Shown here piece after piece: positions 6,270-62,121 of a stretch of DNA of 62,176 nucleotides (positions within the stretch are counted from its first letter, which is position 1; every line of letters begins with the position of its first letter). The notes beneath the pieces are model-generated. The model had not been told where the DNA came from. It saw only the letters and a program-made list of their open reading frames with translations, and did no database searches. Source of the DNA: Polaromonas sp. (GTDB lineage: Bacteria; Pseudomonadota; Gammaproteobacteria; Burkholderiales; Burkholderiaceae_C); the NCBI GenBank assembly GCA_043778695.1, contig JAYWFR010000112.1, positions 1 through 62,176 of the forward strand. The letters run 5' to 3'. Made by a program: the position numbers and the translations under genes.

Positions 6270-6312
6270 TAGCCCAATAGAGATATGCGCAAGCTGCTAT
6301 TAAAATCATATC
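6270..6312 (-). repeat. Element A copy (43-bp double palindrome)
   Basis: TAGCCC-N11-GCGCAA-N3-GCTAT-N7-ATATC. Confidence 0.8.
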
Positions 6313-6398
6313 GCACTAACGCAAGTCAGCAGTTGACAGCTCAATGTTGCATGACCAGACGATAACGAGCCCTGATAGCGATTGCGGTCTCTTCGTAC

Positions 6399-6689
6399 TC
6401 AAACACCTTCAATGATCCGAATGTCTCGATCCGCGCCATCACCCAGCGCGGCTAATGCTGCTTGGTAGCCGGGACTGTCGTGTGCTGCGGTGGCTTGCTC
6501 GACGCTGTCAAACTCGATGAGGACTGTGCGCTCTTCCAACCCGAGTTCATACACCATTGACGGCGCACCGCGCGCCAAAAATCGACCGCCTGCTGCGGTA
6601 AGTGCAGGCCCCGCTAGCACAGCGTAGGCGGCGACTTTTTCAGCGTTTTTCACTGCGCGGTAAGTGCTGACCCAATAGGTTTTCGACAT
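6399..6689 (-). CDS. DUF1330 family protein
   Basis: AGGRFLARG...VLIEFDS...A.HDSPGYQ pattern; start at MSKTY with SD AAGGA. Confidence 0.85.
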   Translation of the reverse strand: MSKTYWVSTYRAVKNAEKVAAYAVLAGPALTAAGGRFLARGAPSMVYELGLEERTVLIEFDSVEQATAAHDSPGYQAALAALGDGADRDIRIIEGV

Positions 6690-6838
6690 TTTTTTCCTTG
6701 TTGATATGGGCTCAATTTTGACTGCTTTCTGGCGTTTTACACATACAAGCATCATGAAAACTGTCGCGAAAGTCGGTTTTCAGACGGCTGTGATCGAAAA
6801 TACTGTTTTTAACAATTTTCAAAGGTTAATTTGGCCTA

Positions 6839-6881
6839 CAAGCCAATAAATACCAGGGCGAGCAGCTGCTAAAAAAATAGC
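6839..6881 (-). repeat. Element A copy
   Basis: CAAGCC-N11-GGGCGA-GCA-GCTGC-N7-ATAGC. Confidence 0.7.
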
Positions 6882-7117
6882 ATTAACCCCCCGACAAAGG
6901 CGCAAAAGCTCTGCGGCGCTTCGTCAGCATGGTCATGAACTCACATATTGCGCCTATGTCAGCTATTACAGCTTTTACAGCTGTTTTGAGTATTTACCGA
7001 GTGCTTTGGAGGAGCAACAAACACGTTTGAACAAATCATGACGCCTATAACGGCTCAAATAGTATGACACTTCAGCCTAGCTCTTTCAGTAACAGTTCTA
7101 AAGTAAGAATCAGCCTC

Positions 7118-7160
7118 TAGCCCACGTAAATACGGGGTAAGCAGCTCCTGAAAATATAGC
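7118..7160 (-). repeat. Element A copy
   Basis: TAGCCC-N11-GGGTAA-GCA-GCTCC-N7-ATAGC. Confidence 0.8.
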
Positions 7161-7184
7161 GCTTTGCATCGCTGCTTGACTGGT

Positions 7185-8015
7185 TTACAGCACGATGCAC
7201 GTCTTCGGCTTGAAAAACAATTGCTCATTTTTGCGCGCATAGCCCAATGGGTTGGCCACCACCCGACAACCGCCAGCCGTGTAGTCCACCGCGCAGTGCA
7301 AATGCCCGTGCAGCCATAGCTGCGCTTGGGAAAATAAATCGTCCAGCGCATTGCAAAACCCGGCTGTGCCGGGGTTGACGCCGTAGCGCGGGTCTGCGCT
7401 CAGCAGGCTGGGGGCAAAGTGGGTCACAACCACGGTTTTTTCGACCGTTTTGCGGTCAAGTGTTGTTGCTAGCACTTGCCGCAGCCAGGCCTGGCTGCTC
7501 AGACCCAGCTCGCGTATCTCCTCAGCCATCATGGGCTGGCCTGCTAGCAACGCATGGTGGCGTTTTAAGGAATGGTTCGCCGCGCGAAACGCTTTCTCAC
7601 GTGCCACGAGCTGCTGGCCGACGGTCACTGGGTTGGCCATAGCCCGCGTCGATGTTGGCGAGTCAAAGTCTGTCCAGAGTGTGCAGCCAACAAAGCGCAC
7701 GCCTTCAATCATGGCCACTTCTTGCTCTAGCCAAATAAAGCCCAGCCGGGCGCAAACCTCTTGCAGCCGCGCACGGGTCGCAGCATAGTCCTGTCCATCG
7801 TATTCATGGTTGCCGGGTACAAACACCACCGGGCACGGCCAATTGGCAAAGCGCTGCAAACCAAAGTCGGCAATGCTTAGGCGGGTCAGCGACGACTCGT
7901 TTTGGTACGACCCAATGTCTCCCGCCAGCACCAGCACATCAGCACCTGGCGCGGGCTCGGGCACAAAGTGCGGATGAGACTCCAAATGCAGGTCAGAAAG
8001 TAGCTGAATGTTCAC
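7185..8015 (-). CDS. Metallophosphoesterase (calcineurin-like)
   Basis: SDLH, AGDI, PGNHE, THFAP and HGHLH motifs. Confidence 0.88.
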   Translation of the reverse strand: MNIQLLSDLHLESHPHFVPEPAPGADVLVLAGDIGSYQNESSLTRLSIADFGLQRFANWPCPVVFVPGNHEYDGQDYAATRARLQEVCARLGFIWLEQEVAMIEGVRFVGCTLWTDFDSPTSTRAMANPVTVGQQLVAREKAFRAANHSLKRHHALLAGQPMMAEEIRELGLSSQAWLRQVLATTLDRKTVEKTVVVTHFAPSLLSADPRYGVNPGTAGFCNALDDLFSQAQLWLHGHLHCAVDYTAGGCRVVANPLGYARKNEQLFFKPKTCIVL

Positions 8016-8169
8016 GAGGACGATTGTCGCCGACGTTCGTCAGTCGATTAGGTTATGCGTTTATTGCATCGAATCCGGGCACTTCCGGGCTTGTGAATCT
8101 AGGGAAAACCCGTATATTTCATTCACCGCAACTTTTAGCGCCTCTTTAACTTTTTAAAGGCGCAGCACC

Positions 8170-8346
8170 ATGACTGAATTACTCAAGCAAATCGCCGAGT
8201 TCATCAAGCCCGACGACGCTTTACAGGAAGCCCCTGGCGTAGCACAACACCTGATGGAACGCGCCGAAGCGGACGCTGGCCGCAACCCGGTTGAAGCTGA
8301 AGAGCTGCGCACTGCTGCTCGGGCATTTTTAAGCGTGGTTCGCTAA
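8170..8346 (+). CDS. Small hypothetical protein (58 aa)
   Basis: Below the ORF-track cutoff; SD AAAGG, host-like codons, MTELLKQIAEFIKPDDALQEAPGVAQHLMERAEADAGRNPVEAEELRTAARAFLSVVR. Confidence 0.65.
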   Translation: MTELLKQIAEFIKPDDALQEAPGVAQHLMERAEADAGRNPVEAEELRTAARAFLSVVR

Positions 8347-8411
8347 ACACCCATACGCAACATAAGCGTTGCGCTATTGGCGCAGACGATCGGCCGCTAC
8401 ACAATTGGTTT

Positions 8412-9386
8412 ATGGCACAACGCTCACAGCCGCTGCGCATGCAGCTCAACACTTTTTATTCCGGCCCGCAGGCCTGGTTTTTCTTGGCCGAAGAGCGCGG
8501 GTATCTGCGTGATGAGGGGCTGGAGATTGAATTTACCGAAGGCGATACCGCCGCCAACACCGTCCCCAAAATGGCAGCTGGTGGTTTTGATGTCGGCTAT
8601 GGCGACATCAATGCGCTGATAGCGCATGCGGCTAACGGCAATGCCAACGCGCCCCTGGCCGTATTCGCCAGCTACAACGCCTCGCCGTACGCCATTGCCG
8701 TGCCATTCAACAGCAGCATTCGCACACCGCAAGACCTGACAGGCAAGCTGCTGGCTGCGCATCCGCAAGACGCGGCAATGCTCCTGTTCCCTGAGTTTTG
8801 CAAGCGCACAGGGCTTGACGCAACTACCGTACGCACCGTGATTGACGCCGCGCCGCACAGCACCATGGTGCCCGAGCTGCTGGCAAACAACTGGGACGGG
8901 ATGTTCGGCTTTGTCAACACCCTGATTGCCGCGTCGATTGATGCAGGCATTGACCCGAAAGCGCTGCGCTACATCGAGTACCACGATCATGTGTCAGAGC
9001 TGTACGGCATGGCGCTGATGGTTACCCGCTCGCTCGCTGCAACAGAGCCAGACACCGTGTACAGATTGCTGCGTGCTTTCAATCGCGGCCTGGTTGACAC
9101 CATCGCCGACCCGGCTGCAGCCATTGGAGCCCTGGCCAAACGCAACCCAGCCATCAACCGCGAGTCAAACCTGCGCCGTTTGATGGGCACGCTGCAACTG
9201 GAGATGGGCCGCGCTGAAGGCGGCGTGCTGGGCATTGGCGATGTGGACGACGCCCGCTTTGCGCAGGGCATTGAGCTGCTGGTAACCACCAAAAATCTGC
9301 CGCATCACCCCAAGGCCGGGGAGTTGTTTGACAGGCGTTTTTTACCGCCTCTAGCGGATCGAGTGCGCAACTTGGTCAGGGCCTAA
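8412..9386 (+). CDS. NMT1/THI5-like substrate-binding-fold protein
   Basis: A.ERGYLRDEGLEIEF, FDVGYGD and LYGMALMV patterns; no evident signal peptide. Confidence 0.8.
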   Translation: MAQRSQPLRMQLNTFYSGPQAWFFLAEERGYLRDEGLEIEFTEGDTAANTVPKMAAGGFDVGYGDINALIAHAANGNANAPLAVFASYNASPYAIAVPFNSSIRTPQDLTGKLLAAHPQDAAMLLFPEFCKRTGLDATTVRTVIDAAPHSTMVPELLANNWDGMFGFVNTLIAASIDAGIDPKALRYIEYHDHVSELYGMALMVTRSLAATEPDTVYRLLRAFNRGLVDTIADPAAAIGALAKRNPAINRESNLRRLMGTLQLEMGRAEGGVLGIGDVDDARFAQGIELLVTTKNLPHHPKAGELFDRRFLPPLADRVRNLVRA

Positions 9387-9402
9387 AAGGGTTTGAAATT
9401 TA

Positions 9403-9502
9403 CCCCGTCTTCCGCTGGGGGGCGCTAGGCTGGCGGCATCCACGGAACCAACACGAGTTCAGCATTCGCCTCCAGCCTAACCCTCCCCAAGTGGGGCGGG
9501 AA
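9403..9502. repeat. Degenerate BoxC-like (family C) palindromic repeat
   Basis: CCCCGTCTTCCGCTGGGGGG...CCTAACCCTCCCCAAGTGGGGCGGGA between convergent genes; resembles 34058-34178. Confidence 0.5.
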
Positions 9503-9517
9503 ATAAGAGCACTGCCC

Positions 9518-10519
9518 TCAGAGCTTCACCCCAGCTCCTTTAACCACCGGCCCCAACACGGCGACCTGGTCTTTCACAAAACTGTTGAAGCCCGCCACAT
9601 TGGTCGGCACAGCGATGATGCCCAAGTCATTAAACTTGGCTTTGATCTCGGGCATAGCCAGCACCTCGTTGCACACCGCATTGAGCCGGGCCACCATCTC
9701 AAGCGGCAACTTGGCTGGGCCTGACAGGCCGAAAAAATTCTCCAGCACCAGCTTGGGTTGCTTCAGTTCGACCACGGTGGGCACGTCGGGCATCAGCGGC
9801 GACCGGATGCTGGACGTCACCGCCAGTGGCAGCAACTGGCCACTTTTGAAAAACGGGACGTACGATGTGATCACGTCGATACCAACGGGAATCACCCCGG
9901 CAATCAAGTCTGTGGTCATGGGTGCGCCGCCACGATAAGGCACGTGCTGCAGGTTGATCATCATTTGCTTTTTCATCAGTTCGCCATGAATGTGGCCAAC
10001 GGAGCCCGGCCCACCCGAACCAAAATCAAGCCGCCCGGTTTTGCGGGCTGCTGCTTCCAGGTCAGCCATGCTGCTGATGCCAGCTTTCGGGTTGGCCATG
10101 ATGACAAGCGGCGCAGAGCCCAGATAACTGACGTGGGTGAAGGCTTCAATCGGGTCATACGGCAGCTTGTCCAGCGTGAAGGGGCCGAGCGCAATCGGTG
10201 ATGTGTTTGCCAGCATGAAGGTGTAGCCGTCAGGCGCGCTTTGAGCGACAAACGCTCCGCCAATCGTGCCGCCAGCGCCGGGTTTGTTGTCCACCACCAC
10301 CGGCTGCCCCAGCTTTTTGGTCAGCTGCTCAGCCATCAGCCGCGCCACCACATCGCTGGCACCACCTGGCGGGAAGGTCACCACAATTTTGATGGCTTTG
10401 TCTGGCCAGGCAGCGCGGGCTGGCAGGGCGAACGCAGCAGCGCCCACAGCGGCCCATCGCAGGGCCGCGCGACGGGAAGGGCCCAAAGGGCGTTGCGCAT
10501 GGGTTGCAGTGTTTTTCAT
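9518..10519 (-). CDS. Bug/TctC tripartite tricarboxylate transporter substrate-binding protein
   Basis: WPDKAIKIVVTFPPGGASD, DNKPGAGG, APDGYT, HVPYRGG; Tat-like SRR signal. Confidence 0.92.
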   Translation of the reverse strand: MKNTATHAQRPLGPSRRAALRWAAVGAAAFALPARAAWPDKAIKIVVTFPPGGASDVVARLMAEQLTKKLGQPVVVDNKPGAGGTIGGAFVAQSAPDGYTFMLANTSPIALGPFTLDKLPYDPIEAFTHVSYLGSAPLVIMANPKAGISSMADLEAAARKTGRLDFGSGGPGSVGHIHGELMKKQMMINLQHVPYRGGAPMTTDLIAGVIPVGIDVITSYVPFFKSGQLLPLAVTSSIRSPLMPDVPTVVELKQPKLVLENFFGLSGPAKLPLEMVARLNAVCNEVLAMPEIKAKFNDLGIIAVPTNVAGFNSFVKDQVAVLGPVVKGAGVKL

Positions 10520-10675
10520 GGGGGTTTCCAGATAAATAGTGAAATATTGCAATGTACGGCGCGCTGGCTGGCATGCCAATCGCTTGCAGCTTATACCGGC
10601 CATAAGCCAACCACCAGATATTAAACTGAGCAGCACCATTTCCGCTGAACAGCACCATTACCGTGCATACAAAAC

Positions 10676-11668
10676 ATGACCCGAACTGCAGACCCCTTTG
10701 ATACCTACTTGCTGCGCGTCTTCAGCATGCTGATGGCTGAGCGCAGTGTGTCGCGTGCGGCAGCCAAATTAGACCAGTCGCAGCCCGCCGTGTCTGCTGC
10801 GCTTAAACGTTTGCGGGACATTTTGGGTGATCCGTTGCTGGTCAAAGACAAGCAGCGCATGGTGCCAACCGAGCGTGCCTTGCAGCTTGAAGCGTCGGTG
10901 CGAATTGTGCTGGGCGAGATTGAAAGCCTGCTGGCTCCCGCTGCCGAGTTTGACCCCGCCACCACCAAACTGACCTTTCGCATTGGCACGCCCGACTATT
11001 TAGCCCCACCGCTGATGGCCAGTTTGGTCAGCTACCTGCGCATGACGGCGCCCAAAGCCAGGCTGATCTTGGTTCCCCTGGGCAACGACTTTGACTACGA
11101 GGCGGCGCTAGCCAATGGCGAGCTTGACATCGTGATTGGCAACTGGCCGCAGCCACCCGAGCACCTGCGCATGACTATTCTTTTAGAAGACGCGGTAGTT
11201 TGTCTGGTCAGCCGTGATCACCCTTGCGCCGGTAAGTCGGACTCGCAACTAACGGTGGCAGATTATTTGAACGGCGCACACATCGTGCCGCTGACTTACA
11301 GCGTGATGCAGCGCGGCGTGGTGGAGTCGCATTTGGCTGCGCTGCGGTTGCACCGCGAGGCAACAGTCACTGTGCCCTACTTCAGCATGGCGCCCAGTTT
11401 GCTGCCCGGTACAGATTTGATTTTTACCACCAGCCGCCACTTTGCCGAGCACCACGCCCGCCAGCTGCCGCTTGCCATCCTAAAGCCGCCGATTGACTTC
11501 CCGACCATGCGCTTTTACCAGCTGTGGCACAACCGAAGTCAGCAGTCCCAAAGCAACGCGTGGCTGCGCTCGCTGCTGTCAGCTGTGGCGCGGACGGCCG
11601 ATGCGGCGCAAGGTTTGCGGCAGCCAGGCGGGAGCCGAGTCAAACCGAACTTACTACTAAAATCGTAG
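10676..11668 (+). CDS. LysR family transcriptional regulator
   Basis: SVSRAAAKLDQSQPAVSAALKRLR HTH; divergent from the Bug gene. Confidence 0.92.
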   Translation: MTRTADPFDTYLLRVFSMLMAERSVSRAAAKLDQSQPAVSAALKRLRDILGDPLLVKDKQRMVPTERALQLEASVRIVLGEIESLLAPAAEFDPATTKLTFRIGTPDYLAPPLMASLVSYLRMTAPKARLILVPLGNDFDYEAALANGELDIVIGNWPQPPEHLRMTILLEDAVVCLVSRDHPCAGKSDSQLTVADYLNGAHIVPLTYSVMQRGVVESHLAALRLHREATVTVPYFSMAPSLLPGTDLIFTTSRHFAEHHARQLPLAILKPPIDFPTMRFYQLWHNRSQQSQSNAWLRSLLSAVARTADAAQGLRQPGGSRVKPNLLLKS

Positions 11669-11695
11669 CTGCTCGCCCCCGTATTTGTCGGGCTA
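11653..11695 (+). repeat. Element A copy overlapping the LysR stop codon
   Basis: ACTAC-N7-GTAGC-TGC-TCGCCC-N11-GGGCTA. Confidence 0.8.
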
Positions 11696-11819
11696 GCGAC
11701 GTATTTTCTTGTTAAAAACCTTATCTGGTAGCCAAGCCATCTTGGGTTGACAAACACCTAAGCAGACGCGTGGTATCCGCTTCAGTGTTTAATCAGCGCT
11801 GCAGAATATAAAGCGTTTT

Positions 11820-12215
11820 ATGTTGACCCAAATAAGCAATCTCATCACAGCCGGCAACGTTGGCATCATGTTGTTTTTTTCAGTAGCAGTGGCTCCCACT
11901 ATCTTCATGGTGCTGCCGCCTGAGTGGTCGGCAGCATATGTGCGCAAGTTCTTCCCCAAGTATTTTTTGTTCTTGGGCATCACCAGCGCAATAGCCGCGG
12001 TACTGCACAACTTACCGCTGGTGCAAATCAGTCTGGGCCTGTGCGCTGCGGTTTTCTTTTTCAGCGTTTTCTGGCTGACGCCGCGCATCAACTTAGCGCG
12101 GGACAACAAGCAGATGAAGAAATTCAATGTGCTGCACTACACCAGCGTGGGCCTAAATCTCGCGCAGTTGGCAGTGTTTATTTGGGTACTGGTTAAAAGT
12201 GTATGGGTATCGTGA
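11820..12215 (+). CDS. DUF4149 family membrane protein
   Basis: Four hydrophobic helices, APTIF, TPRIN.ARD, F..LH..SV.LN. Confidence 0.75.
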   Translation: MLTQISNLITAGNVGIMLFFSVAVAPTIFMVLPPEWSAAYVRKFFPKYFLFLGITSAIAAVLHNLPLVQISLGLCAAVFFFSVFWLTPRINLARDNKQMKKFNVLHYTSVGLNLAQLAVFIWVLVKSVWVS

Positions 12216-12261
12216 TTTTGGTCGACATAGCCAAACGCGGGCAGCTCCTAAACAAAGAGCA

Positions 12262-12801
12262 TCAATCCTTCACCCGCGACGCAAACGTCTTGCGAAACTT
12301 CGCCACTTTCGGCCCCGCCACCGCCACGCAATAACCCTGGTTCGGGTTCTTGGCAAAGAAGTCCTGGTGGTACTCTTCAGCCGGCCAATAGTTCGCTAGC
12401 GGCACGACTTCGGTCACGATGGGGCTGTCAAATACTTTGTCTTGGCTCATTTTGCGAATCATATTGTCGGCAACTTGCTTTTGCTCCGCGCTTGAGTAGT
12501 AAATGCCACTGCGGTACTGGGTGCCGCTGTCGTTGCCCTGGCGGTTGAGGGTAGTGGCGTCGTGCACAACAAAAAAGATTTCAAGAATCTCGCCCAGCGT
12601 TATTTGTTCGGGGTCGTAGTCAAGTTTGACCACCTCGTTGCTGCCGGTGCGGCCGGTGCACACGTCTTCGTAGCTGGGGCGATTCACTTGTCCATTGCTA
12701 TAGCCTGATTCCACGTCAGTGATGCCGCGAACTTTGACGAACACCGCCTCGGTGCACCAAAAGCACCCGCCGCCCAGGGTGATGGTTTGAACTTGAGTCA
12801 T
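12262..12801 (-). CDS. msrA: Peptide methionine sulfoxide reductase A
   Basis: GGGCFWC, NRQGND.GTQYRS, AEEYHQ. Confidence 0.96.
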   Translation of the reverse strand: MTQVQTITLGGGCFWCTEAVFVKVRGITDVESGYSNGQVNRPSYEDVCTGRTGSNEVVKLDYDPEQITLGEILEIFFVVHDATTLNRQGNDSGTQYRSGIYYSSAEQKQVADNMIRKMSQDKVFDSPIVTEVVPLANYWPAEEYHQDFFAKNPNQGYCVAVAGPKVAKFRKTFASRVKD

Positions 12802-12913
12802 AAACTTTTTTCCTAATGTGTTGTATGGTTGCGGGTGCAGCGCATCAAGCGCATTGCTCGGTACACTTTAAGCCCAAAGCGTTTAGACAGACCACCCAAA
12901 GGACACATTCTTC

Positions 12914-14134
12914 ATGAAAACCAACGTCAAACCGCGCTTCGTCTGGGAAGACCCTTTTATGCTGCAAGACCAGCTAAGCGACGACGAGCGCGCCATTCAA
13001 GAGGCGGCGCACCAGTTTTGCCAGGACAAGCTGCAAACCCGCGTGTTGATGGCCGCGCGGCACGAAAAATTTGACCGCGAGATCATGAATGAAGCCGGTG
13101 CGATGGGGTTTTTAGGCTCGACGATTGAAGGCTACGGCTGCGCTGGCCTGAGCTATGTTGATTACGGGCTGATCGCGCGTGAAGTCGAGCGGGTAGACAG
13201 CGGCTACCGCAGCGCCATCAGCGTGCAGTCGTCACTCGTCATGCACCCCATCAACGCCTACGGCAGCGAGGCGCAAAAACAAAAGTATCTGCCAAAGCTG
13301 GCCACTGGCGAATGGGTGGGCTGTTTTGGTTTGACCGAACCCAACCACGGCTCTGACCCGGCCAGCATGCTGAGCCGCGCCAAGCCAATTACGGTTGACG
13401 GGGTGAGCGGCTTCGTCATGAATGGTGCCAAGATGTGGATCACCAATTCACCAATTGCCGATGTGTTTGTGGTGTGGGCCAAACTAACGGACCCAGATGG
13501 CAACACCGGTGGGCAAGAGTCGATTCGCGGCTTTATCCTTGAGAAGGGTATGAAAGGCCTCACCGCTCCCAAGATTGAAGGCAAGATGAGCTTGCGCGCC
13601 TCGATCACAGGAGAGATCGTGATGGACGGCGTGTTTGTGCCCGAGGGCAACATGCTGCCAAAGGTAAGCGGCCTGAAAGGCCCATTTGGCTGCCTGAACA
13701 AAGCCCGTTACGGCATTGCTTGGGGGGCTCTAGGTGCGGCTGAAGACTGCTGGTTTCGTGCCCGCCAGTACACGATGGACAGGGTGCAGTTTGGCCGCCC
13801 GCTGGCGCAAAACCAGCTCATCCAGAAAAAGCTAGCCGACATGCAAACCGAAATCGCCCTCGGCCTGCAAGCCTGCCTGCGGGTAGGCCGCCTGATGGAT
13901 GAAGGCAAGGACGTGCCAGAGATGATTTCGATCATCAAGCGCAACAGCTGCGGCAAGGCACTCGACATTGCCCGCATGGCGCGCGACATGCACGGCGGTA
14001 ATGGTATTCATGATGAATACCACGTGATTCGCCACATGATCAATTTAGAGACCGTCAACACCTACGAAGGCACGCACGATGTGCACGCGCTGATATTGGG
14101 TCGGGCGCAAACGGGCTTGCAAGCGTTTTATTGA
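12914..14134 (+). CDS. gcdH: Glutaryl-CoA dehydrogenase (acyl-CoA dehydrogenase)
   Basis: [32 protein letters not shown]. Confidence 0.9.
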
Positions 14135-14177
14135 TTTTGGGCCGTTTCTAATCATTTTCAAGCATCGTTTAACGCCT

Positions 14178-14220
14178 TAGCCCCATGAATATCTGGGCGT
14201 GCAGCTCCTGTTTTAATAGC
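14178..14220 (-). repeat. Element A copy
   Basis: TAGCCC-N11-GGGCGT-GCA-GCTCC-N7-ATAGC. Confidence 0.8.
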
Positions 14221-14225
14221 AACTG

Positions 14226-53693: not shown

Positions 53694-54382
53694 ACCAAGA
53701 CCTGTCGATTGTTAACCTGATTCTTCACGCCAGTTGGGTGGTGCAAGGTGTGGTGGCGCTGCTAGTCGGCGTGTCGATCGCCAGTTGGGCAGCCATCATT
53801 CGCAAAATTACAGCACTTAAAAAAGTACAACGCCTTAATGACGCGTTTGACCGTGAGTTTTGGTCAGGCACCAGCTTGAACGACCTGAACGCCAGCGCCG
53901 CACAAAATGCCAAACACTCAGGCTCGATGGAACGCATTTTTGCCAGCGGTATGCGGGAGTTTCAAAAACTCCGCGAGCGCCGCATCACTGACGCTGGCAC
54001 GCTGATGGACGGCGCACGCCGCGCCATGCGTGCCAGTTACCAGCGCGAGGTAGATGCGATTGAAACCAACTTGTCGTTTTTAGCCACCGTTGGCTCGGTG
54101 TCGCCCTACGTCGGCTTGTTTGGCACCGTGTGGGGCATCATGCATGCCTTTACCGGCCTGGCGGCGCTGGAACAAGTCACGCTGGCCAGCGTAGCGCCAG
54201 GTATTGCTGAGGCGCTGGTGGCCACCGCCATCGGCCTTTTCGCCGCCATTCCGGCAGTGGTGGCGTATAACCGCTTTGCGCACGACATTGACCGCATCGC
54301 CAACAAGCTGGAAACTTTTATTGAAGAGTTTTCTAATATTTTGCAGCGCAACCTCGGTGCACAGTCACCTTCTGGACACTAG
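53690..54382 (+). CDS. tolQ: TolQ
   Basis: SPYVGLFGTVWGIM, VAPGIAEALVATA.GL.AAIPA. Confidence 0.95.
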   Translation: MNQDLSIVNLILHASWVVQGVVALLVGVSIASWAAIIRKITALKKVQRLNDAFDREFWSGTSLNDLNASAAQNAKHSGSMERIFASGMREFQKLRERRITDAGTLMDGARRAMRASYQREVDAIETNLSFLATVGSVSPYVGLFGTVWGIMHAFTGLAALEQVTLASVAPGIAEALVATAIGLFAAIPAVVAYNRFAHDIDRIANKLETFIEEFSNILQRNLGAQSPSGH

Positions 54383-54384
54383 CC

Positions 54385-54819
54385 ATGCCGGCCATCAATT
54401 CGCGAGGTCACGGCCGCCGCACCATCAGTGAAATCAACATGGTGCCCTTCATTGACGTGATGCTGGTGCTGCTGATTATTTTTATGGTGACAGCGCCGCT
54501 CATCACGCCCAGCATGATTGCCCTGCCAAAAGTCGGCAAGGCGGCTGCGCAGCCCGCCAGCCCGGTACAAATCGTGATCGGCAAGGACGAGGCGATTCAG
54601 ATCAAAGTCAAGAATGATTCGCGGCCTAGCAATGTCGCGACCGTAGCAGCAGACATTGTGAAGCTGGAGCCCAAGGTAAAAATGGCCGCTCTTGAGGCAG
54701 TTCCTGTCGTCATCAGCGCTGACAAGTCCATCAAATACGAAACCGTGGTCAAGGTGATGGACACGCTGCAAAAAGCCGGTGTGTCGCGCGTTGGGTTGTC
54801 GGTGCAAACGGGTAAGTAA
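54385..54819 (+). CDS. tolR: TolR
   Basis: EINMVPFIDVMLVLLIIFMVTAP, ADK. Confidence 0.93.
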   Translation: MPAINSRGHGRRTISEINMVPFIDVMLVLLIIFMVTAPLITPSMIALPKVGKAAAQPASPVQIVIGKDEAIQIKVKNDSRPSNVATVAADIVKLEPKVKMAALEAVPVVISADKSIKYETVVKVMDTLQKAGVSRVGLSVQTGK

Positions 54820-54822
54820 ATT

Positions 54823-55680
54823 TTGCCCAGTGCCTTAGATCGCAGTGACTTTGGCCCGCCGCGTGATGCCGGAGCGATCCGCTCGTTCGGTTTGGCGCTA
54901 CTGGTGCATGCAGCACTGATTGCTGCATTGACCTGGGGCGTGAATTGGAAGCGAAGCGATCCGTCAGTTGCGTTTGAAGCCGAGCTGTGGTCTAACGTAC
55001 AGCAAGAAGCAGCGCCCAAGTTGATTGAAGTGTCACCTGCGCCGCCGCCGCCAGCAGAACCAGCACCAAAAGCACAACCAGTAGCGCCACCAGAACCGCA
55101 AGTTGACATTGCGCTAAGCCAAGAAAAAAAGCGCAAACTGCAAGAGCAACAAAAACTGCGGGATGCCGCTGAAGCCAAGGCTGATGCACTTGCTGAAAAA
55201 GAGCGCAAGCTCAAGCAAGAACAGGCAAAAATAAAAGCTGCCGAAGACATCAAAAAAGCGGAAATTAAAAAGCAGGCAGTCAAAGAGCAAGCAACAGCGG
55301 CGGCATCACAAGAGCAGCGCAAGCAAAACATTGCACGCAGCATGGGCCTGGCGGGCGCGACGGGCGGCGAGGCGGCAAAGGGCTCAGCGCTGACGTCCAG
55401 CGGACCATCAGCCAGCTACAAAAGCAAGCTGGCAGCGCTGTTTAAACGCAACATCACCTTTTCAAACGTCGACAGCATTCAGGGCAACCCGCGCGCCATT
55501 GTGCAAGTCAAAGTCTCCTCGTCTGGGCTCATCATGAGTTCACGACTGACCAAGTCAAGCGGCATTCCCGCTTGGGATGAAGCGGTGCTGCGTGCCGTTG
55601 AAAAAGCAGAGCGCATCCCTACAGATGAGAATGGGAAAGTCGTGACAGACTTTCCGGTTGAGTTTGGCCCAAAAGATTGA
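54823..55680 (+). CDS. tolA: TolA
   Basis: TM helix with H, Pro-rich and K/E/A-rich stalk, SSG...WDEAV C-terminal domain; follows tolQR. Confidence 0.88.
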   Translation: MPSALDRSDFGPPRDAGAIRSFGLALLVHAALIAALTWGVNWKRSDPSVAFEAELWSNVQQEAAPKLIEVSPAPPPPAEPAPKAQPVAPPEPQVDIALSQEKKRKLQEQQKLRDAAEAKADALAEKERKLKQEQAKIKAAEDIKKAEIKKQAVKEQATAAASQEQRKQNIARSMGLAGATGGEAAKGSALTSSGPSASYKSKLAALFKRNITFSNVDSIQGNPRAIVQVKVSSSGLIMSSRLTKSSGIPAWDEAVLRAVEKAERIPTDENGKVVTDFPVEFGPKD

Positions 55681-55681
55681 T

Positions 55682-55724
55682 GCTATTCATTCAATAGCTG
55701 CTAGCGCTCTAATTACCTGGGCTG
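55682..55724 (+). repeat. Element A copy
   Basis: GCTAT-N7-ATAGC-TGC-TAGCGC-N11-GGGCTG. Confidence 0.88.
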
Positions 55725-55784
55725 CAACGCAATATTGATACCAAATAAAATTTTGGTCGCTGCCAGCCATCGCTACAGCGAAAG

Positions 55785-56969
55785 CTACTGCGCCCGAGCA
55801 AGGCGCCTGACACCCTCAGCAATCTTCTCCAAGTCTGCCGTTGCAAAGCTCAACCGGAAGGTTGCCCTGTCCACATTGGTTGCAAAAAACGGCGCACCGG
55901 GTACAAACGCCACGCCCTGCTCAATCGCTCGTTTTGCAAACTCGCTAGAGTCCGCATTCGGCGCGTTCAAGCGTGACCAGAAAAACATCCCGCCTTGCGG
56001 CTGGTCAAAGCTTGCGGCATCGCCCAATTCACTTTTCAAGCAACGGGCCATCGTCTGCGCGCGTTCGGCGTAGGTCTTGCGCACCACGTCAAGGGCGGCA
56101 TCCATGCGGTTTAAGCCCAGGTATTGCGCGGCGATGGCTTGGGTCAAGTTACTGGTGTGTGCATCGCTGAATTGCTTGCACATCACAGCGTTGGCCAGCA
56201 GCTGCGGCTGGGCCACCATCCAGCCGACACGCAGGCCGGGCGACAACACCTTGCTGAAGGACCCGCAGTACGCCAAATACTCACGCGAGCCGGGCACGCT
56301 GCTGCTGAGTGCCAACATGCTGGGCGGCGGCGGCGCGCCAAAGTACAGCTCACCATACGGGTCGTCTTCAACTACCAGCACGCGGTACTGGGCGGCCAGC
56401 TCTAAAATGCGCTTGCGGCGCTCTAGGCTCAGCATCGCGCCACTGGGATTGCCGAAGGTCGGTATCAAATACACCAGCTTGGGCTTGTGTTCAATGATCA
56501 ACCGCTCCAGCTCGTCGACCTTCACGCCGTCGGCATCAATCTGCGCGCTCACAATGTCAGCACCATAAAGCCGAAAGCACTGGATGGTGGCCAAGAAGGT
56601 CGGCCCTTCCACAATCACTTTGTCACCCGGGTTGATCATGGTTTTGCCAATCAAGTCCAGGCCCTGCTGACTACCCGTGGTGGTGATGATTTGCTCTGGC
56701 GCAGCCTCAATCCCCTTGAGCGCCAGGTAGCCACTGAGCGCTTGCCGCAGGGCAGGCCAGCCCTCAGTGGCGCCGTACTGCAACACGGCACCAGGGTGGC
56801 CAGCCAGCACCTGTTCAGATGCTGTGCGGACCCCCTCCACATCAAACAGCGCTGGGTCTGGAAAGCCGCCCGCAAAGCTAATGATGCCGGGCTTGCCGAG
56901 TAACTTGAACAGCTCGCGGATGGCAGAGGTTTCGACGTTGTTTAGCCGGGACGCAAATTGAAGAGACAT
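55785..56969 (-). CDS. PLP-dependent aminotransferase (LysN/Aro8-like)
   Basis: SAIREL, ISFAGGFP, NPSG, EDDPY, SFSKVLSPGLR. Confidence 0.9.
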   Translation of the reverse strand: MSLQFASRLNNVETSAIRELFKLLGKPGIISFAGGFPDPALFDVEGVRTASEQVLAGHPGAVLQYGATEGWPALRQALSGYLALKGIEAAPEQIITTTGSQQGLDLIGKTMINPGDKVIVEGPTFLATIQCFRLYGADIVSAQIDADGVKVDELERLIIEHKPKLVYLIPTFGNPSGAMLSLERRKRILELAAQYRVLVVEDDPYGELYFGAPPPPSMLALSSSVPGSREYLAYCGSFSKVLSPGLRVGWMVAQPQLLANAVMCKQFSDAHTSNLTQAIAAQYLGLNRMDAALDVVRKTYAERAQTMARCLKSELGDAASFDQPQGGMFFWSRLNAPNADSSEFAKRAIEQGVAFVPGAPFFATNVDRATFRLSFATADLEKIAEGVRRLARAQ

Positions 56970-56983
56970 GTGAAAATAGCTCA

Positions 56984-57622
56984 ATGAAAAAAGAAAACAT
57001 AGTGCCGTTTTTTGCTACTTTAAAAGCAGCAAACCCGCAGCCGGTAACAGAACTTGAATATACCAGCGTGTTTGAATTACTGACCGCTGTACTGCTGTCT
57101 GCTCAAGCCACCGACGTGAGTGTCAACAAAGCCACGCGCAAGCTGTTTGCAGTGGCCAACACCCCACAAGCGATTTTAGATTTGGGTTTAAAAAAGCTTG
57201 AGCAGCACATTAAAACCATTGGCCTGTTCCACAGCAAAGCCAAGCACCTGCTGCAAACCTGCCAGATGCTGGTAGAGCTGCACAGCGGCATTGTGCCGCG
57301 CACCCGTGAGGCGCTTGAAGCGCTGCCAGGCGTGGGCCGCAAAACAGCCAATGTGGTGCTTAACTCAGCCTTTGGCGAAGCCACCATGGCGGTGGACACG
57401 CATATCTTTCGCATGGGTAACCGCACGGGCTTGGCACCGGGCAAAACGCCGCTTGACGTAGAACTAAAACTGCTCAGGCGCATACCCGCTGAATACTTGG
57501 TAGACGCCCACCATTGGCTGATACTGCATGGCCGCTATGTGTGCATGGCTAGGTCACCGCATTGTTGGCAATGCGCTGTTAGCAGCTACTGTAGTTTTAA
57601 GCCAAAAGCTGTGATTGATTAG
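56984..57622 (+). CDS. nth: Endonuclease III
   Basis: LLSAQATD, LPGVGRKTANVV, VDTH, C-X6-C-X2-C-X5-C. Confidence 0.96.
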   Translation: MKKENIVPFFATLKAANPQPVTELEYTSVFELLTAVLLSAQATDVSVNKATRKLFAVANTPQAILDLGLKKLEQHIKTIGLFHSKAKHLLQTCQMLVELHSGIVPRTREALEALPGVGRKTANVVLNSAFGEATMAVDTHIFRMGNRTGLAPGKTPLDVELKLLRRIPAEYLVDAHHWLILHGRYVCMARSPHCWQCAVSSYCSFKPKAVID

Positions 57623-57627
57623 TAAAT

Positions 57628-57670
57628 GCTATTAAATAAATAGCAGATAGCGCTTATATTAATTGGGCTA
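57628..57670 (+). repeat. Element A copy
   Basis: GCTAT-N7-ATAGC-AGA-TAGCGC-N11-GGGCTA. Confidence 0.88.
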
Positions 57671-57678
57671 TAGGCTTA

Positions 57679-59133
57679 TTAAGTAATATTTTGAGCGATG
57701 TACGCTTTTATTTGAGCCACGTCGGGCGGCATCAGCTTGACCCGCTTGGGCAGCGCCTCAATGCCTTCAAACCGCGCTGGCCTTGGCGGTAATCTGCCCA
57801 GCGCCTCTTCGATCGTCTCAGCAAATTTGATCGGCAGCGCGGTCTCCAGCACGATCATTGGCACACCCGGTTGCATGTGCTCGCGCGCAACTTTCACACC
57901 ATCAGCTGTGTGGGTGTCAATGATGTCGTTGAACTGCGCGTACACGTTTTGAATGGTGGCCAAGCGGTTGGCGTGGGTGCTTTTACCACTCAAAAAACCA
58001 TAGGTTTTAGCCGCAGATTTAAACGCTTGCTTAGAACTCAGATCAAAAAAACCTTTGGCATTGACCTGGTCATAAAACAGCGCCTTGGTTTGCGGACCGT
58101 CGCGATCCAACAAGTCGAACACAAAGCGCTCAAAGTTTGACGCTTTTGAAATGTCCATCGACGGACTGGAGGTTTCATGCGTGTCTTGGCTGGTCCGAAC
58201 ACGGTAAATACCAGTGCGGAAAAACTCATCTAGCACATCGTTCTCATTAGTTGCCACGACCAAGTGCGCGATTGGCAACCCCATCATGCGGGCGACGTGG
58301 CCAGCACAAACATTGCCGAAATTACCTGAAGGGACTGTGAAGCTGACTTTCCTGATTCCGTCCCCTTCCGGGGGAGGGCTAGGGAGGGGGCTGCCCCCGA
58401 TTTGGGTTGCCTGAAAATACCCCGCAAAGTAGTAAACCACCTGCGCCATTAACCTAGCCCAGTTGATCGAATTCACCGTCCCAATCTTGTACTGACGCTT
58501 GAACTCCAAATCATTGGACACCGCTTTGACAATGTCTTGGCAATCGTCAAACACGCCCGCAATTGCAATGTTGTGAATGTTCGCGTCTTGCAGGCTGAAC
58601 ATTTGCGCCTGTTGAAACGGGCTCATCCGCCCTTGTGGCGACGTCATGAACACCCGCACCCCACGCTTGCCGCGCATGGCGTATTCAGCCGCGCTGCCCG
58701 TATCACCACTGGTCGCACCAAAGATGTTCAGCTCTTCTTTGCGCCGTGCCAATTCATATTCAAACAAATTGCCCAACAGTTGCATCGCCATGTCTTTAAA
58801 AGCCAGCGTTGGGCCATTCGACAGCGCCTGCACATGCAAGCCGGGCTCTAGCGGGCGCAGCGGCACGATGGCAGCCGTGCCAAATACTTCTTGCGTATAG
58901 GTTTTGCGGCAAATGACTTTTAAGTCGGCTGCCGGAATGTCGTCTACATACAGCGACAACACTTCAAAAGCCAGGTCAGCGTAGGGCAAGTTGCGCCAGG
59001 CATCGAGCATGGCAGGCGTGACTTGCGGGTAATGCTCTGGCAAATACAACCCGCCGTCGGGTGCGAGACCTTCAAGCAAGATGTCGCAGAATTTGCGTGG
59101 TGTTTTGTCGCCACGGGTGGAGAGGTAATTCAT
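57679..59133 (-). CDS. thrC: Threonine synthase
   Basis: YLSTRG, GLAPDGGL, GPTLAFKD, ATSGDTG, NSINWAR, VPSGNFGN. Confidence 0.96.
   Translation of the reverse strand: MNYLSTRGDKTPRKFCDILLEGLAPDGGLYLPEHYPQVTPAMLDAWRNLPYADLAFEVLSLYVDDIPAADLKVICRKTYTQEVFGTAAIVPLRPLEPGLHVQALSNGPTLAFKDMAMQLLGNLFEYELARRKEELNIFGATSGDTGSAAEYAMRGKRGVRVFMTSPQGRMSPFQQAQMFSLQDANIHNIAIAGVFDDCQDIVKAVSNDLEFKRQYKIGTVNSINWARLMAQVVYYFAGYFQATQIGGSPLPSPPPEGDGIRKVSFTVPSGNFGNVCAGHVARMMGLPIAHLVVATNENDVLDEFFRTGIYRVRTSQDTHETSSPSMDISKASNFERFVFDLLDRDGPQTKALFYDQVNAKGFFDLSSKQAFKSAAKTYGFLSGKSTHANRLATIQNVYAQFNDIIDTHTADGVKVAREHMQPGVPMIVLETALPIKFAETIEEALGRLPPRPARFEGIEALPKRVKLMPPDVAQIKAYIAQNIT
58356..58398. repeat. Family C half-repeat, in frame in thrC
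   Basis: CCGTCCCCTTCCGGGGGAGGGCTAGGGAGGGGG, encoding GGSPLPSPPPEGDG. Confidence 0.75.
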
Positions 59134-59344
59134 TTAAGTGGGAATCAATTCAATATAAGTGGGACTGATGAAAAAAAACGAGCGGCCTGAAAATTCCCAC
59201 ATCGAGTCTTCTCCGCGCGTTTCGCACACGATTTCTGCTGCTGGTCGCTTGCGATTTCCGATGCTCCCCCCATTGGGCGAAAAGGGTCATCACTGAATTG
59301 CTGATTTGCCACAGTTACTGCTTTGACGGTAAAGGTCACGCTAG

Positions 59345-60223
59345 CTATCGCGCTAGCAGCACTTCAGCTTTAGGAAAGACAGTCCAATAAGAGTTGTTCG
59401 TTGATTCACCGTTTTCGCAGGTTTGTGTCAGCACTTCGGGCGTTCCGTCCCCATTCAAATCTCTAAAACCGCCTTTGATGCATCCGTCAAAACGCGCCGT
59501 TTCAACCAACGAATCGCCCACCTTTGCATAGACCACGTTGACGATGTTCCAACCCATCAAATCACAAGAATCTAATCCAATCGAGGATATGTATAAGAAA
59601 CCGTTAGGGCTCGGAATCTTGAACTTCTTGCCATGAAATTTTTTGTATTGAGCGGAGGATTGGATATCACGCACGTATTTTTCGTGATCTTGCTTGTAAG
59701 TTGTTGTGCGTTGCGTAATAGGTCTTCCAAGTCGTCGATCAATTTTCGCGCTGTTCTCGTCAACCTCGCTGTACCGACTTTGATAACAAACAAAGGCGTT
59801 TTTCTCAGGTTCTAAGAAACGCCGTTCCCCGATTTTTAACAGCTCTAACTCTTCGGAGGAAAAATCGAACAAACTCAACCTTGGCGGTATCGGTTTTTTG
59901 GATAAAACGCTCAACTCAGATAGTTTGAAAGACTCCTTCGTCGTCAGCAAAATTTGGAAAAATTCTCCCCGGATGTCTGGATCACCCAGTTGACATTTCA
60001 CGGGCGCTAATGCGCCAGACACGTAAACTAAACCACCCTTGGTGCAATGTCTAAGAGACTCTCTAATTTCACCGGCGAGCAACCCGACGTAGTGGCCATT
60101 CTCACCAGCACTAAGCGATGTGAGTTCGACCCCCGAAATTTTAGATGCCATACCTGCCCAGGTATCTGCAGCCGCGTGAACTGGTGCGAGAAGGCGTGCA
60201 ATTGTTACTTTGTTCCATCTCAT
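59345..60223 (-). CDS. Hypothetical protein with a DLNGDG (FG-GAP/Ca-loop-like) motif
   Basis: 292-aa ORF, visibly AT-richer than the flanks; FRDLNGDGTPEV. Confidence 0.65.
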   Translation of the reverse strand: MRWNKVTIARLLAPVHAAADTWAGMASKISGVELTSLSAGENGHYVGLLAGEIRESLRHCTKGGLVYVSGALAPVKCQLGDPDIRGEFFQILLTTKESFKLSELSVLSKKPIPPRLSLFDFSSEELELLKIGERRFLEPEKNAFVCYQSRYSEVDENSAKIDRRLGRPITQRTTTYKQDHEKYVRDIQSSAQYKKFHGKKFKIPSPNGFLYISSIGLDSCDLMGWNIVNVVYAKVGDSLVETARFDGCIKGGFRDLNGDGTPEVLTQTCENGESTNNSYWTVFPKAEVLLAR

Positions 60224-60381
60224 TTTTTAATGCTCTAACGGCGAATTGATAAGAAAAAGTAACGAGGCCACGTGGGTCAGTTCTTTCATTGCAAAATTTA
60301 GCTATCGATAAATTACTCGCGGCCTTGCGCTTAACCAGGGCATGACGCCTTCGCAATTCAAGTCAAACGCTACCAAAGCCG

Positions 60382-60621
60382 TCAAGCAAGCTCAAGCCGT
60401 CTTTCGATTCTGTCTAAACGTTCAGACAGCCTGTCCATACGCACCGCGCCGCTGGCATCAATCTCGTCACCGTGTGCAATATCACGGCGCAAACCTGCAA
60501 GAGACACTTCAAGATGGCCTATTCGGCTGACTGTTTCTTCCTGTTTCCGTTCGACACGATCCAATGTCGCCTGGAATCGCTTCAGGTGCTCCAGCATTAA
60601 ACTTTCAGTTTGGTCGGTCAT
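60382..60621 (-). CDS. Small coiled-coil hypothetical protein
   Basis: SD AGGA; LMLEHLKR...RLDRIERRLEL heptad pattern. Confidence 0.75.
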   Translation of the reverse strand: MTDQTESLMLEHLKRFQATLDRVERKQEETVSRIGHLEVSLAGLRRDIAHGDEIDASGAVRMDRLSERLDRIERRLELA

Positions 60622-60728
60622 GATTTCCTAAGCCTCTTGAATGATATTCTTGGTGGATGTTACCTAAACTGTCGGTGAATTTAAAAGCAATTTTGGTAGA
60701 TGACGAGTATTGGGAGTCCTCAGTTTGT

Positions 60729-62051
60729 TCAAACCAACTCCTCCTTACGAATTCGCACAATCGGCGCCAGCACCGTCTTCAGTGCCTGCATCTGCGCCAG
60801 TGCCTCATTCATCTTGGCCTCAACACAGTCATGGGTCAAGATAATCAGGTCAGTTTGCGTGGCACCCTCGCCGCCTACCTCGTCAGCTTCTCGCTGCAAC
60901 ACCGCATCAATACTGATACCCGCTTTGGCCAGAATGCTGGTGACGTTGGCCAGCACGCCGGCTTCGTCGGCTACCTTTAAGCGCAGGTAGTAGCTGGTCA
61001 CCACTTCACCCATGGGCAGCACAGGCGTGTTGCTCATTGCATCAGGCTGAAACGCCAGGTGCGGTACGCGCTGGGCTGCGTCGGCGCTGTGCAAGCGAGC
61101 GATGTCGATGAGGTCGGCAATCACGGCACTCGCCGTAGGCTCGCTGCCTGCACCTTTGCCGTAGTAGAGCGTGGTGCCAACAGCATCGCCGTGCACCATC
61201 ACCGCGTTCATTGCGCCTTCAACGTTGGCAATCAGCCGCTTGATGGGTACCAGCGTGGGGTGAACGCGCAGCTCGATGCCCTTGTCCGTTTTTTTAGTCA
61301 AGCCCAGCAGCTTGATGCGGTAACCCAATTGCTCGGCGTATTTGATGTCAGTTGCACCCAGCTTGGTGATGCCTTCAATGTAGGCTTTGTCAAACTGCAC
61401 TGGCACGCCAAAGGCCATGGCCGACATGAGTGCGGCTTTGTGCGCCGCGTCAACGCCTTCAATGTCAAAGGTCGGATCGGCTTCTGCATAGCCCAATGCT
61501 TGCGCTTGTTTTAGCACCGCGTCAAAGTCCAGGCCTTTGTCGCGCATCTCGCTCAAGATGAAATTGGTCGTGCCGTTGATGATGCCGGCAATCCACTGAA
61601 TCCGGTTGGCGCTCAGGCCTTCACGCAATGACTTGATGATGGGTATGCCGCCAGCCACGGCGGCTTCAAACATCACCATCACGCCTTTGCGGCTGGCAGC
61701 GGCAAAAATCTCGGTGCCGTGTACGGCCAGCAGTGCCTTGTTCGCTGTCACCACATGCTTACCTGCTTCAATGGCTTCCAGCACCAGTTGTTTGGCTATG
61801 CCATAGCCGCCAATCAGCTCAATGACAACGTCGATGTCGGGGTTGGCAATAACAGCGCGCGCGTCGCTGACCACTTTGACATTGGGCCCGACTGCGGCTT
61901 GAGCGCGTGCGGTGTCCAGGTCAGCCACCATGGCAATCTCAATACCCCGTCCGGCGCGGCGAACGATCTCGCTTTGATTACGCTGCAACACAGTAAACAC
62001 GCCGCTGCCGACAGTGCCAATGCCCAGAAGGCCTACTTGAATCGATTTCAT
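60729..62051 (-). CDS. hom: Homoserine dehydrogenase with ACT domain
   Basis: GIGTVG, VVTANK, EAAVAGGIP, NGTTNFIL, GYAEADP, G.GAG..PTASAV. Confidence 0.96.
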   Translation of the reverse strand: MKSIQVGLLGIGTVGSGVFTVLQRNQSEIVRRAGRGIEIAMVADLDTARAQAAVGPNVKVVSDARAVIANPDIDVVIELIGGYGIAKQLVLEAIEAGKHVVTANKALLAVHGTEIFAAASRKGVMVMFEAAVAGGIPIIKSLREGLSANRIQWIAGIINGTTNFILSEMRDKGLDFDAVLKQAQALGYAEADPTFDIEGVDAAHKAALMSAMAFGVPVQFDKAYIEGITKLGATDIKYAEQLGYRIKLLGLTKKTDKGIELRVHPTLVPIKRLIANVEGAMNAVMVHGDAVGTTLYYGKGAGSEPTASAVIADLIDIARLHSADAAQRVPHLAFQPDAMSNTPVLPMGEVVTSYYLRLKVADEAGVLANVTSILAKAGISIDAVLQREADEVGGEGATQTDLIILTHDCVEAKMNEALAQMQALKTVLAPIVRIRKEELV

Positions 62052-62078
62052 ATGCTTTTTCACTAACAAAACGGGCTA

Positions 62079-62121
62079 TAGCCCTTGTAAATCATGAGCG
62101 AGCAGATACCAATTTGATAGC
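62079..62121 (-). repeat. Element A copy overlapping the stop of the upstream gene
   Basis: TAGCCC-N11-GAGCGA-GCA-GATAC-N7-ATAGC. Confidence 0.78.

Follow-up and report, generated by a model that had tools for sequence, protein, structure and literature searches.

The stretch of DNA analyzed here, 62,176 nucleotides of contig JAYWFR010000112.1 of Polaromonas sp. (hereafter, the window), carries 15 copies of a dispersed element that occurs hundreds of times in the genome. This element is a real, old, and actively maintained DNA signal without a described function and is confined to part of one bacterial family, the Comamonadaceae. Nucleotide substitution in place is a proven route by which its copies arise within genes; partial insertions occur at some loop sites. 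The explanation that we tentatively rank first regards the element as a signal of 69 bp in double-stranded DNA that would work like a DNA uptake sequence (DUS).

Anatomy of the 69-bp element

A weight matrix was built from the 15 window copies and refined by iteration over the draft genome (3.17 Mb in 315 contigs, 87% complete). With a cut-off of 20 bits, this matrix yields 703 matches, compared to 0 in locally shuffled DNA, in line with the hundreds of sites per genome projected in a first-pass annotation of the window. All 15 copies claimed there are present, 9 on the plus strand and 6 on the minus strand, with scores of 32.7–53.6 bits; the matrix scan of the window finds no further match of at least 14 bits, that is, no 16th copy. 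The element had been described as a 43-bp double palindrome, followed in most forward copies by an A/T tail. The tail is real but belongs to the element itself, so that the conserved span extends from about −3 to +65 and amounts to 69 bp rather than 43 bp.

Within this span, box 1 (positions 1–17) is a dyad in which C2, T3, A15, G16, and C17 are fixed at 98–100% and which has four interchangeable half-site variants. The T-N11-A rule of LysR boxes, previously noted for this palindrome, holds throughout, with T3 and A15 at frequencies of 0.99–1.00 in the 703 copies. Box 2 (positions 21–43) is a weaker dyad (pseudo-dyad) centered 23 bp from box 1. The A/T tracts occupy positions 7–10, 30–33, 51–54, and 62–65, with a best period of 11.0 bp in the Polaromonas sp. 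genome and of 10.7 and 10.9 bp in two other genomes. The arm is one-sided; arms on both sides were found in 1 of the 703 copies. The claimed invariance of spacer length is borne out, with the native spacing found at 505, 505, 527, and 451 loci and any shift by 1–4 bp at no more than 6. The accompanying claim that the spacer sequence is free did not survive: each position of the central A/T tracts contributes about 1 bit, and the consensus of the second spacer takes different forms in different species. Similarly, the statement that all copies fit a single consensus was too loose, an exact fit being observed for 1 of the 15 window copies (0–7 mismatches) and for 14 of the 703 copies genome-wide (median of 4 mismatches). 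Altogether, the element contains 55 bits of information, whereas 13 bits would suffice for locating the sites.

We read the element as a signal in double-stranded DNA because covariation is absent, folding is at the level of shuffled sequences, and an Rfam search returned zero matches. Specifically, in three genomes, the complementarity of the paired positions is no higher than predicted from base frequencies, and mutual information is limited to adjacent bases; the folding z-scores of the copies have medians of −0.5 and −0.3, with z < −2 in 12%. An RNA hairpin that serves as a terminator or a transcript stabilizer, an explanation already disfavored in the first-pass annotation, would account for the enrichment of the element at the 3′ ends of genes and in convergent gaps. 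Nevertheless, compensatory pairing is lacking, the element shows no fixed orientation relative to the transcript (106 copies in the same and 129 in the opposite direction), terminator-like hairpins are equally common in convergent gaps with the element (64 of 131) and without it (51 of 104), and 239 copies reside inside genes, so that this explanation is refuted on sequence grounds and is hardly credible. Promoter and terminator scans of positions 44000–62176 of the window gave signals at the level of shuffled DNA.

Placement of the copies and their origin within genes

According to simple in-house gene calls (3175 genes), the 703 copies comprise 239 in genes, 154 in convergent gaps, 235 in co-directional gaps, 48 in divergent gaps, and 27 at contig edges. 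Among the gaps of 80–200 bp, the element occupies 57–65% of the convergent, 21–22% of the co-directional, and 1–8% of the divergent ones; divergent gaps are thus the least occupied of all gap types, which is at odds with an operator of a LysR-type regulator that would mark the promoters of a regulon. Intergenic copies are located, at the median, 16–23 bp past the upstream stop codon and are most often stop-free in two of the six frames, and two reading frames hold 197 of the 239 in-gene copies. The in-gene copies are rich in rare codons, with a GC content at third codon positions of 0.31 compared to 0.67 elsewhere; 6.8% of all ATA codons fall within element copies, which account for 0.7% of the codons.

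The copies are spaced more evenly than expected by chance, with 23 neighbor distances below 500 bp compared to the expected 47 ± 6 and a per-contig χ2/df of 0.70, and, in the genome-wide layout, there are no pairs or arrays of the kind typical of repetitive extragenic palindromic (REP) systems. The in-gene and intergenic copies avoid each other: 7, 23, and 54 in-gene copies have an intergenic copy within 0.5, 1, and 2 kb, respectively, compared to 28.5, 57, and 98 expected, and this avoidance is most pronounced at distances below 0.6 kb, becoming weak past about 2 kb. We interpret the even spacing and the mutual avoidance as an indication that the advantage conferred by the element accrues per stretch of DNA and not per gene. 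Orientation relative to the replichore, a check proposed in the first-pass annotation, shows a weak lean that differs among genomes: strict-pattern counts in three closed genomes, made by hand among the matches listed, are 92:55, 32:15, and 80:89 (about 63%, 68%, and 47% co-oriented), and the matrix finds 62 plus-strand and 69 minus-strand copies within one replichore of genome G048. The element is also present around the inferred terminus, and no replichore polarity was detected in the Polaromonas sp. draft genome using GC skew as a proxy. Polar or domain-limited chromosome motifs (KOPS, Chi, matS, SlmA sites) were rejected as counterparts, given that the element displays neither strong polarity nor confinement to, or exclusion from, the terminus.

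Comparison of in-gene copies with their element-free counterparts reveals how they arise. In ribD, compared across 30 genomes (three rows were uninformative), the stretch that contains the element is made up of as many codons as its counterpart in seven genomes that are poor in, or free of, the element; in three other genomes, loop insertions carry a box. When 223 in-gene sites were compared with 800 kb of an element-free genome, 40 had a homolog and 19 passed the identity and anchor filters. The length difference is zero in 5 of these 19 sites and at most 2 amino acids in 9; 4 sites are longer by at least 8 amino acids (gains of 8–21), so that substitution is not the sole route of origin, and 1 is longer by the full element, so that whole-element insertion as in miniature inverted-repeat transposable elements (MITEs) is not the pattern. 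Control windows are unchanged in length in 72% of cases and are never longer by 8 amino acids. Conversely, among 10 in-gene sites from two other genomes that are empty in Polaromonas sp., 4 show zero length change and retain the homologous codons; the genes with unchanged length include what we take to be recN and an rsmB-like methylase gene. Among the rows listed in a comparison of sequencing-run contigs with positions 5800–25790 of the window, no clean presence or absence of a copy was seen. In addition, several box-1 copies lie in tandem ahead of a full element at G000:C277:11210-11290, perhaps by local duplication.

These data bear on the possibility that the element is a REP- or MITE-like repeat that was spread by a domesticated HUH transposase and later decayed or was converted. 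A single-copy gene for a Y1 transposase (RAYT-like, TIRYT-type), flanked by terminal repeats, is located upstream of the glutamate synthase gene in most of the genomes tested (G000:C65:94-801, loci L313–L332), and, in 7 element-rich genomes, a partial element abuts its inner terminal repeat. RTAG precedes the hairpin-like second box, and the gains of several amino acids at some sites, as well as the species-wide shifts of the spacer consensus, could be explained in the same way. However, the nearest-neighbor identity among the 703 copies has a median of 0.70 and a maximum of 0.83 (0.68 and 0.76 after permutation of columns), in agreement with the earlier inference against freshly copied repeats, and near-identical copies in other genomes were seen only in duplicated Rhs cassettes. 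Together with the zero-length gains with ancestral codons retained, the lack of covariation, pairs, and arrays, and the conservation of sites across genera even though the spacers are near saturation, this largely refutes such an origin, which we consider very improbable. The Y1 transposase itself was rejected as the driver because it is also present in element-free genomes; this family-wide protein, which resembles subclass 2.1 as delineated in the available part of the published classification (PMC6006769), is likely a domesticated nuclease.

The conservation of the sites is substantial. Where the interval could be aligned, 19 of 25 sites are common to a congener and 13 of 34 to another genus, always in the same orientation. 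In the conserved sites, the fixed positions are identical whereas the spacers approach saturation (identities of 0.44 and 0.42, compared to 0.35 and 0.31, respectively, for random pairs).

Distribution and candidate functions

A 26-bp pattern derived from the element gives 70–424 matches in 9 of 18 congeners and at most 9 matches in 6 of the 18. By hand count, at least 70 matches are present in 40 of 250 Comamonadaceae genomes, up to 834 per genome, with fewer than 10 for reversed-pattern controls; the named strict-pattern matches come from Polaromonas, Rhodoferax, Giesbergeria, Simplicispira, Hylemonella, and further Burkholderiales. The pattern can miss variant forms; a good ribD site, for instance, is present in a genome for which only 5 matches were counted. 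None of the 196 genomes from other families, searched with the box-1 pattern, comes near these counts, a few reaching 38–62 compared to 18–34 for controls. In the GyrA tree, element-rich and element-poor congeners interleave, and an element-free genome (0 matches in 117 kb) is the sister of two rich ones, which implies repeated loss; within a single genus, at least four lineages that interleave with rich ones have lost all or nearly all copies.

As suggested by its absence from the integrase island and the pilin cluster of the window, which we confirmed, the element is nearly missing from islands and plasmids. In a genome that averages one copy per 3.1 kb, it is missing from stretches of 36 kb and 24 kb without orthologs; among plasmids, 3 matches were found in 971 kb of sequence from three of them and 0 in pVEIS01. 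A BLASTN search of plasmids with one copy returned four chance matches, this search being too insensitive. Two phages, presumably virulent, have 0 matches in 314 kb. At the same time, 71 loci in viral contigs carry the full element, mostly with the arm intact and in some cases in portal, terminase, or primase regions; five viral records that were chosen for having one match contain 2–3 pattern matches per 37–59 kb.

Uptake-type drive is our first choice because the traits of the element match those of DUS and of the uptake signal sequences (USS), pilus and transformation genes are present, and Verminephrobacter eiseniae, the only member of the Comamonadaceae with evidence of selective uptake, is reported to transform selectively. 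Indeed, the element is over-represented, lies on both strands, is evenly spread, arises by mutation in place, shows a frame bias in genes, and is scarce on foreign DNA. Three features that the first-pass annotation lacked, namely, the origin of in-gene copies by substitution, A/T tracts three and four, and the even spacing on the kilobase scale, favor such a drive over ordinary regulator sites, and an information content far above that needed for locating sites is what would be expected from a drive toward an optimum. Under this scenario, related cells would preferentially take up and recombine fragments that carry the element, so that the element would be driven into the genome. A protein would read the element, gripping the dyad and bending the phased arm, and the benefit would act per DNA fragment of approximately 1–2 kb or more, in which case in-gene copies would arise where no intergenic copy is near. 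The reader might be part of the type IV pilus uptake machine encoded in the Polaromonas sp. genome (pilA-D, pilM-Q, pilT/U, minor pilins, comEC, comF, comM, and dprA), and loss of its specificity could leave the sites to decay. Transformation of V. eiseniae depends on the pilus and is cut only about 10-fold by a 1500-fold excess of salmon DNA, the signal not being identified in the available text of that study (PMC4212676). Sequence-specific DNA uptake has been described in only two bacterial families, according to the accessible parts of two accounts (PMC4212676, PMC2817400). Somewhat more speculatively, the element might belong to a class of DNA self-recognition signals that would be the third of its kind, of independent origin and much greater length: a two-box, phased-bend tag, strong enough to alter the codons of essential genes at intervals of a few kilobases in many Comamonadaceae genera, that would be the basis of selective uptake in this family.

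Several observations weigh against uptake. ComEA was not found in the Polaromonas sp. genome, and a short stand-alone ComEA-like frame is present in only 4 of 30 Comamonadaceae genomes, unrelated to the element count. ComEC (78 of 80 genomes) and DprA (44 of 44) are encoded in element-rich and element-free genomes alike, and ComP/PilE-like pilins (PF16732) were found in 60 of 60 genomes whatever the element count, the family model being too broad to single out a receptor; none of the tested proteins tracks the element. Sites with intermediate scores are scarce, the scores peaking at 40–55 bits; the in-gene sites with gains of 8 or more amino acids do not conform to simple mutation in place; and intergenic copies sit close behind the 3′ ends of genes, with a lean to more highly expressed upstream genes (p of 0.005–0.007), which suits an intracellular role as well. 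Furthermore, the core is a 17-bp dyad in a 69-bp motif instead of a short non-palindromic sequence of 9–13 bp, and, in the portion of a 2017 motif survey available to us, V. eiseniae has only one motif pair, unrelated to the element (PMC5217627). In that portion of the survey, Polaromonas naphthalenivorans and Rhodoferax ferrireducens have 106 and 140 pairs, respectively.

With regard to the uptake genes themselves, there are element copies within comEC and dprA and immediately next to comM and comF (G000:C278, C253, C91, C261), a post hoc observation on small numbers. The window encompasses a complete minor-pilin operon (pilV-W-X-Y1-E-fimT; positions 39855–47926) that is poorly conserved at the DNA level in five congeners. 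The FimT protein of this operon carries what we take to be a GRxR-like motif.

A close rival, possible although on the doubtful side, is that the element is the site of an intracellular DNA-bending or DNA-wrapping protein, either a LysR-like tetramer on the two boxes or a topology factor, for which selection would maintain sites at intervals of a few kilobases, chiefly past the ends of genes, where supercoils accumulate. This would readily explain the invariant T-N11-A dyad with its interchangeable half-sites, the 23-bp distance between the boxes, similar to that between the recognition and activation sites of LysR-type regulators, the A/T period of 10.7–11.0 bp in three genomes, the bias toward convergent gaps and 3′ ends, the slight link to the expression of upstream genes, and the presence of the element in phage contigs. 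What such a protein does not easily explain is an information content far in excess of that required for site-finding, and the loss or near-loss of the sites in at least four lineages is unlike a core chromosome system. Moreover, selection would have to pay for amino acid changes in repair and lipopolysaccharide (LPS) genes for the sake of one site among 700, and comparisons of GyrA, integration host factor (IHF), and HU provided no lead. Specifically, gyrase was rejected as the reader because GyrA has no diagnostic column that separates rich from poor genomes among 28 usable rows of 29 (best difference 0.50), and IHF and HU were rejected given that the IHF core word is present in 68 of 703 boxes and the proteins look unchanged in five genomes. 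Separately, two sites that consist of box 1 only (G000:C81:2624 and C268:9422) make up the loop and the inner part of the stem in inverted repeats 17–19 bp behind tRNA genes and adjoin direct repeats that resemble integrase arm sites; tRNA-linked attachment sites usually carry an IHF site.

Drive or selection could also operate by another route, with the element serving as a packaging or protection tag for transducing particles or vesicles, or as a mark of self DNA for a defense system. Such a tag would explain the regular spacing, the symmetry between strands, and the paucity of copies on foreign DNA equally well, and the viral-contig loci with the full element are compatible with it. The mutual avoidance of copies is, however, strongest over distances that are short for headful packaging, the two presumably virulent phages have no copies, and no such gene system could be linked to the element; accordingly, this route seems improbable.

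If the uptake explanation is correct, a third family would possess an uptake signal, one that exceeds those described two- to fivefold in length, which would change the ideas on how DNA is read at the cell surface. The motif offers a direct test of the selective transformation reported in Comamonadaceae and could serve as a tool for raising the transformation of widely used environmental strains. If, instead, the reader is intracellular, the element would reveal an undescribed chromosome-wide binding system that is strong enough to alter protein sequences. Under either reading, the element accounts for about 7% of the ATA codons and for odd peptide patches in these proteomes.

The window copies and comparison with known systems

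Six of the 15 window copies lie wholly within genes, and one overlaps a gene end. The copy with the core at 6270–6312 (element 6248–6316, minus strand; 43.1 bits) lies between convergent genes, and the one at 6839–6881 (6817–6885, minus; 40.0 bits) is intergenic, with 7 mismatches to the earlier consensus. The copy at 7118–7160 (7096–7164, minus; 46.3 bits) adjoins the 3′ end of a metallophosphoesterase gene, that at 11653–11695 (11649–11717, plus; 42.6 bits) overlaps the 3′ end of a LysR-family gene, and that at 14178–14220 (14156–14224, minus; 45.0 bits) lies between an acyl-CoA dehydrogenase gene and an ElyC-like gene. Three copies occupy LPS and DNA repair genes: one in waaA (Kdo transferase), antisense (24422–24490, plus), with counterparts at that site in three congeners and one further genus; one in waaC (heptosyltransferase I), also antisense (25651–25719, plus) and common to three congeners; and one in frame in an ada/alkA-like repair gene (28779–28847, plus), common to congeners. 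The copy at 29595–29637 (29591–29659, plus), in the gap between the alkA-like and ogt-like genes, has counterparts at this site in a congener and in another genus. Further in-gene copies lie in frame in the N-terminal coding region of an amidohydrolase (35762–35830, minus), antisense in a DRL-family oxidoreductase gene whose protein length is equal in four genomes (37872–37940, plus), and in frame in ribD (48642–48710, plus), where the codon count is that of element-free genomes. The copy at 55682–55724 (55678–55746, plus; 52.0 bits) is in the convergent gap of a tolA-like and an aminotransferase gene, and that at 57628–57670 (57624–57692, plus), the sole exact fit to the earlier consensus in the window, in the convergent nth/thrC gap. 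The last copy (62079–62121; element 62057–62125, minus; 38.3 bits) lies upstream of a homoserine dehydrogenase gene.

The window also contains repeats distinct from the element. GC-rich dispersed repeats at 26445–26525, 28327–28402, and approximately 53200–53295 have many copies with 80–93% identity in congeners; by eye, the first two resemble the BRE, as depicted in the accessible part of its description (PMC3110155). A third, REP-like type at 34056–34178, with long inverted CCCTCTCCC/GGGAGAGGG arms, has matches in congeners. The island at 1144–3665 encodes an integrase and a DUF429 protein and lacks the element.

LysR-type sites, such as the OxyR and BenM boxes, consist of a T-N11-A dyad, with half-sites of 4–5 bp around a 7-bp A/T spacer, and a second box about two helical turns away. 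The element shares the dyad and the position of the second box, but differs in that it avoids divergent promoter gaps, favors 3′ ends and coding DNA, and occurs in 700 copies; its second box does not follow the T-N11-A rule, and no regulator could be linked to it. With REP sequences and bacterial interspersed mosaic elements, MITEs, Rickettsia palindromic elements, and the BRE (PMC3110155), as far as the available text of the latter goes, the element shares abundance, dispersal, a bias toward gene ends, and tolerance of in-frame copies. Unlike these repeats, it shows no clean insertion at the majority of its sites and lacks near-identical copies and covariation. Identity with the BRE was rejected, its sequence being unrelated, GC-rich, and located at separate sites in the window, and no link was found to SCOOP-like peptides as presented in the accessible part of their description (PMC8448819).

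A survey by Tong, Schliekelman and Mrazek published in 2017 reports motif pairs in Polaromonas naphthalenivorans and Acidovorax ebreus that, on visual comparison, correspond to boxes 1 and 2, as well as pairs in Rhodoferax ferrireducens; the convergent-gap bias is noted, and no explanation is offered in the sections available (PMC5217627). These unexplained pairs are very likely the same element. The survey gives, in those sections, separate pentamer pairs for each genome, without the full element, the link across genera, the in-gene origin, or a function (PMC5217627). Beyond this paper, no description of the element was found in the open literature, the search scope leaving out most subscription papers and bioRxiv supplements.

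The closest parallels are the USS of Pasteurellaceae and the DUS of Neisseriaceae, with which the comparison is drawn from the accessible parts of two accounts (PMC2817400, PMC3458573). For the element, an uptake role and a receptor are hypothetical. At 69 bp, the element has a dyad as its core plus a second pseudo-dyad, in place of the non-palindromic cores of 9–13 bp in USS and DUS, and is twice as long as a USS (up to 32 nt) and five times as long as a DUS, a disparity that also counts against an uptake function. It is less dense, with 1 copy per 3–7 kb compared to about 1 per 1.2 kb, and does not form the inverted terminator pairs typical of USS and DUS. Because the genomic behavior is alike but the short core is missing, we do not file the element as either DUS or USS. 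The latter two spread by mutation combined with biased uptake (PMC2817400, PMC3458573). Like them, the element is present in hundreds of copies, on both strands, distributed more evenly than random; it shares with them the origin by mutation in place, the frame bias in genes, the scarcity in foreign DNA, and clade-specific variants, and, with the USS, the helically phased A/T (T-) tracts (PMC3458573).

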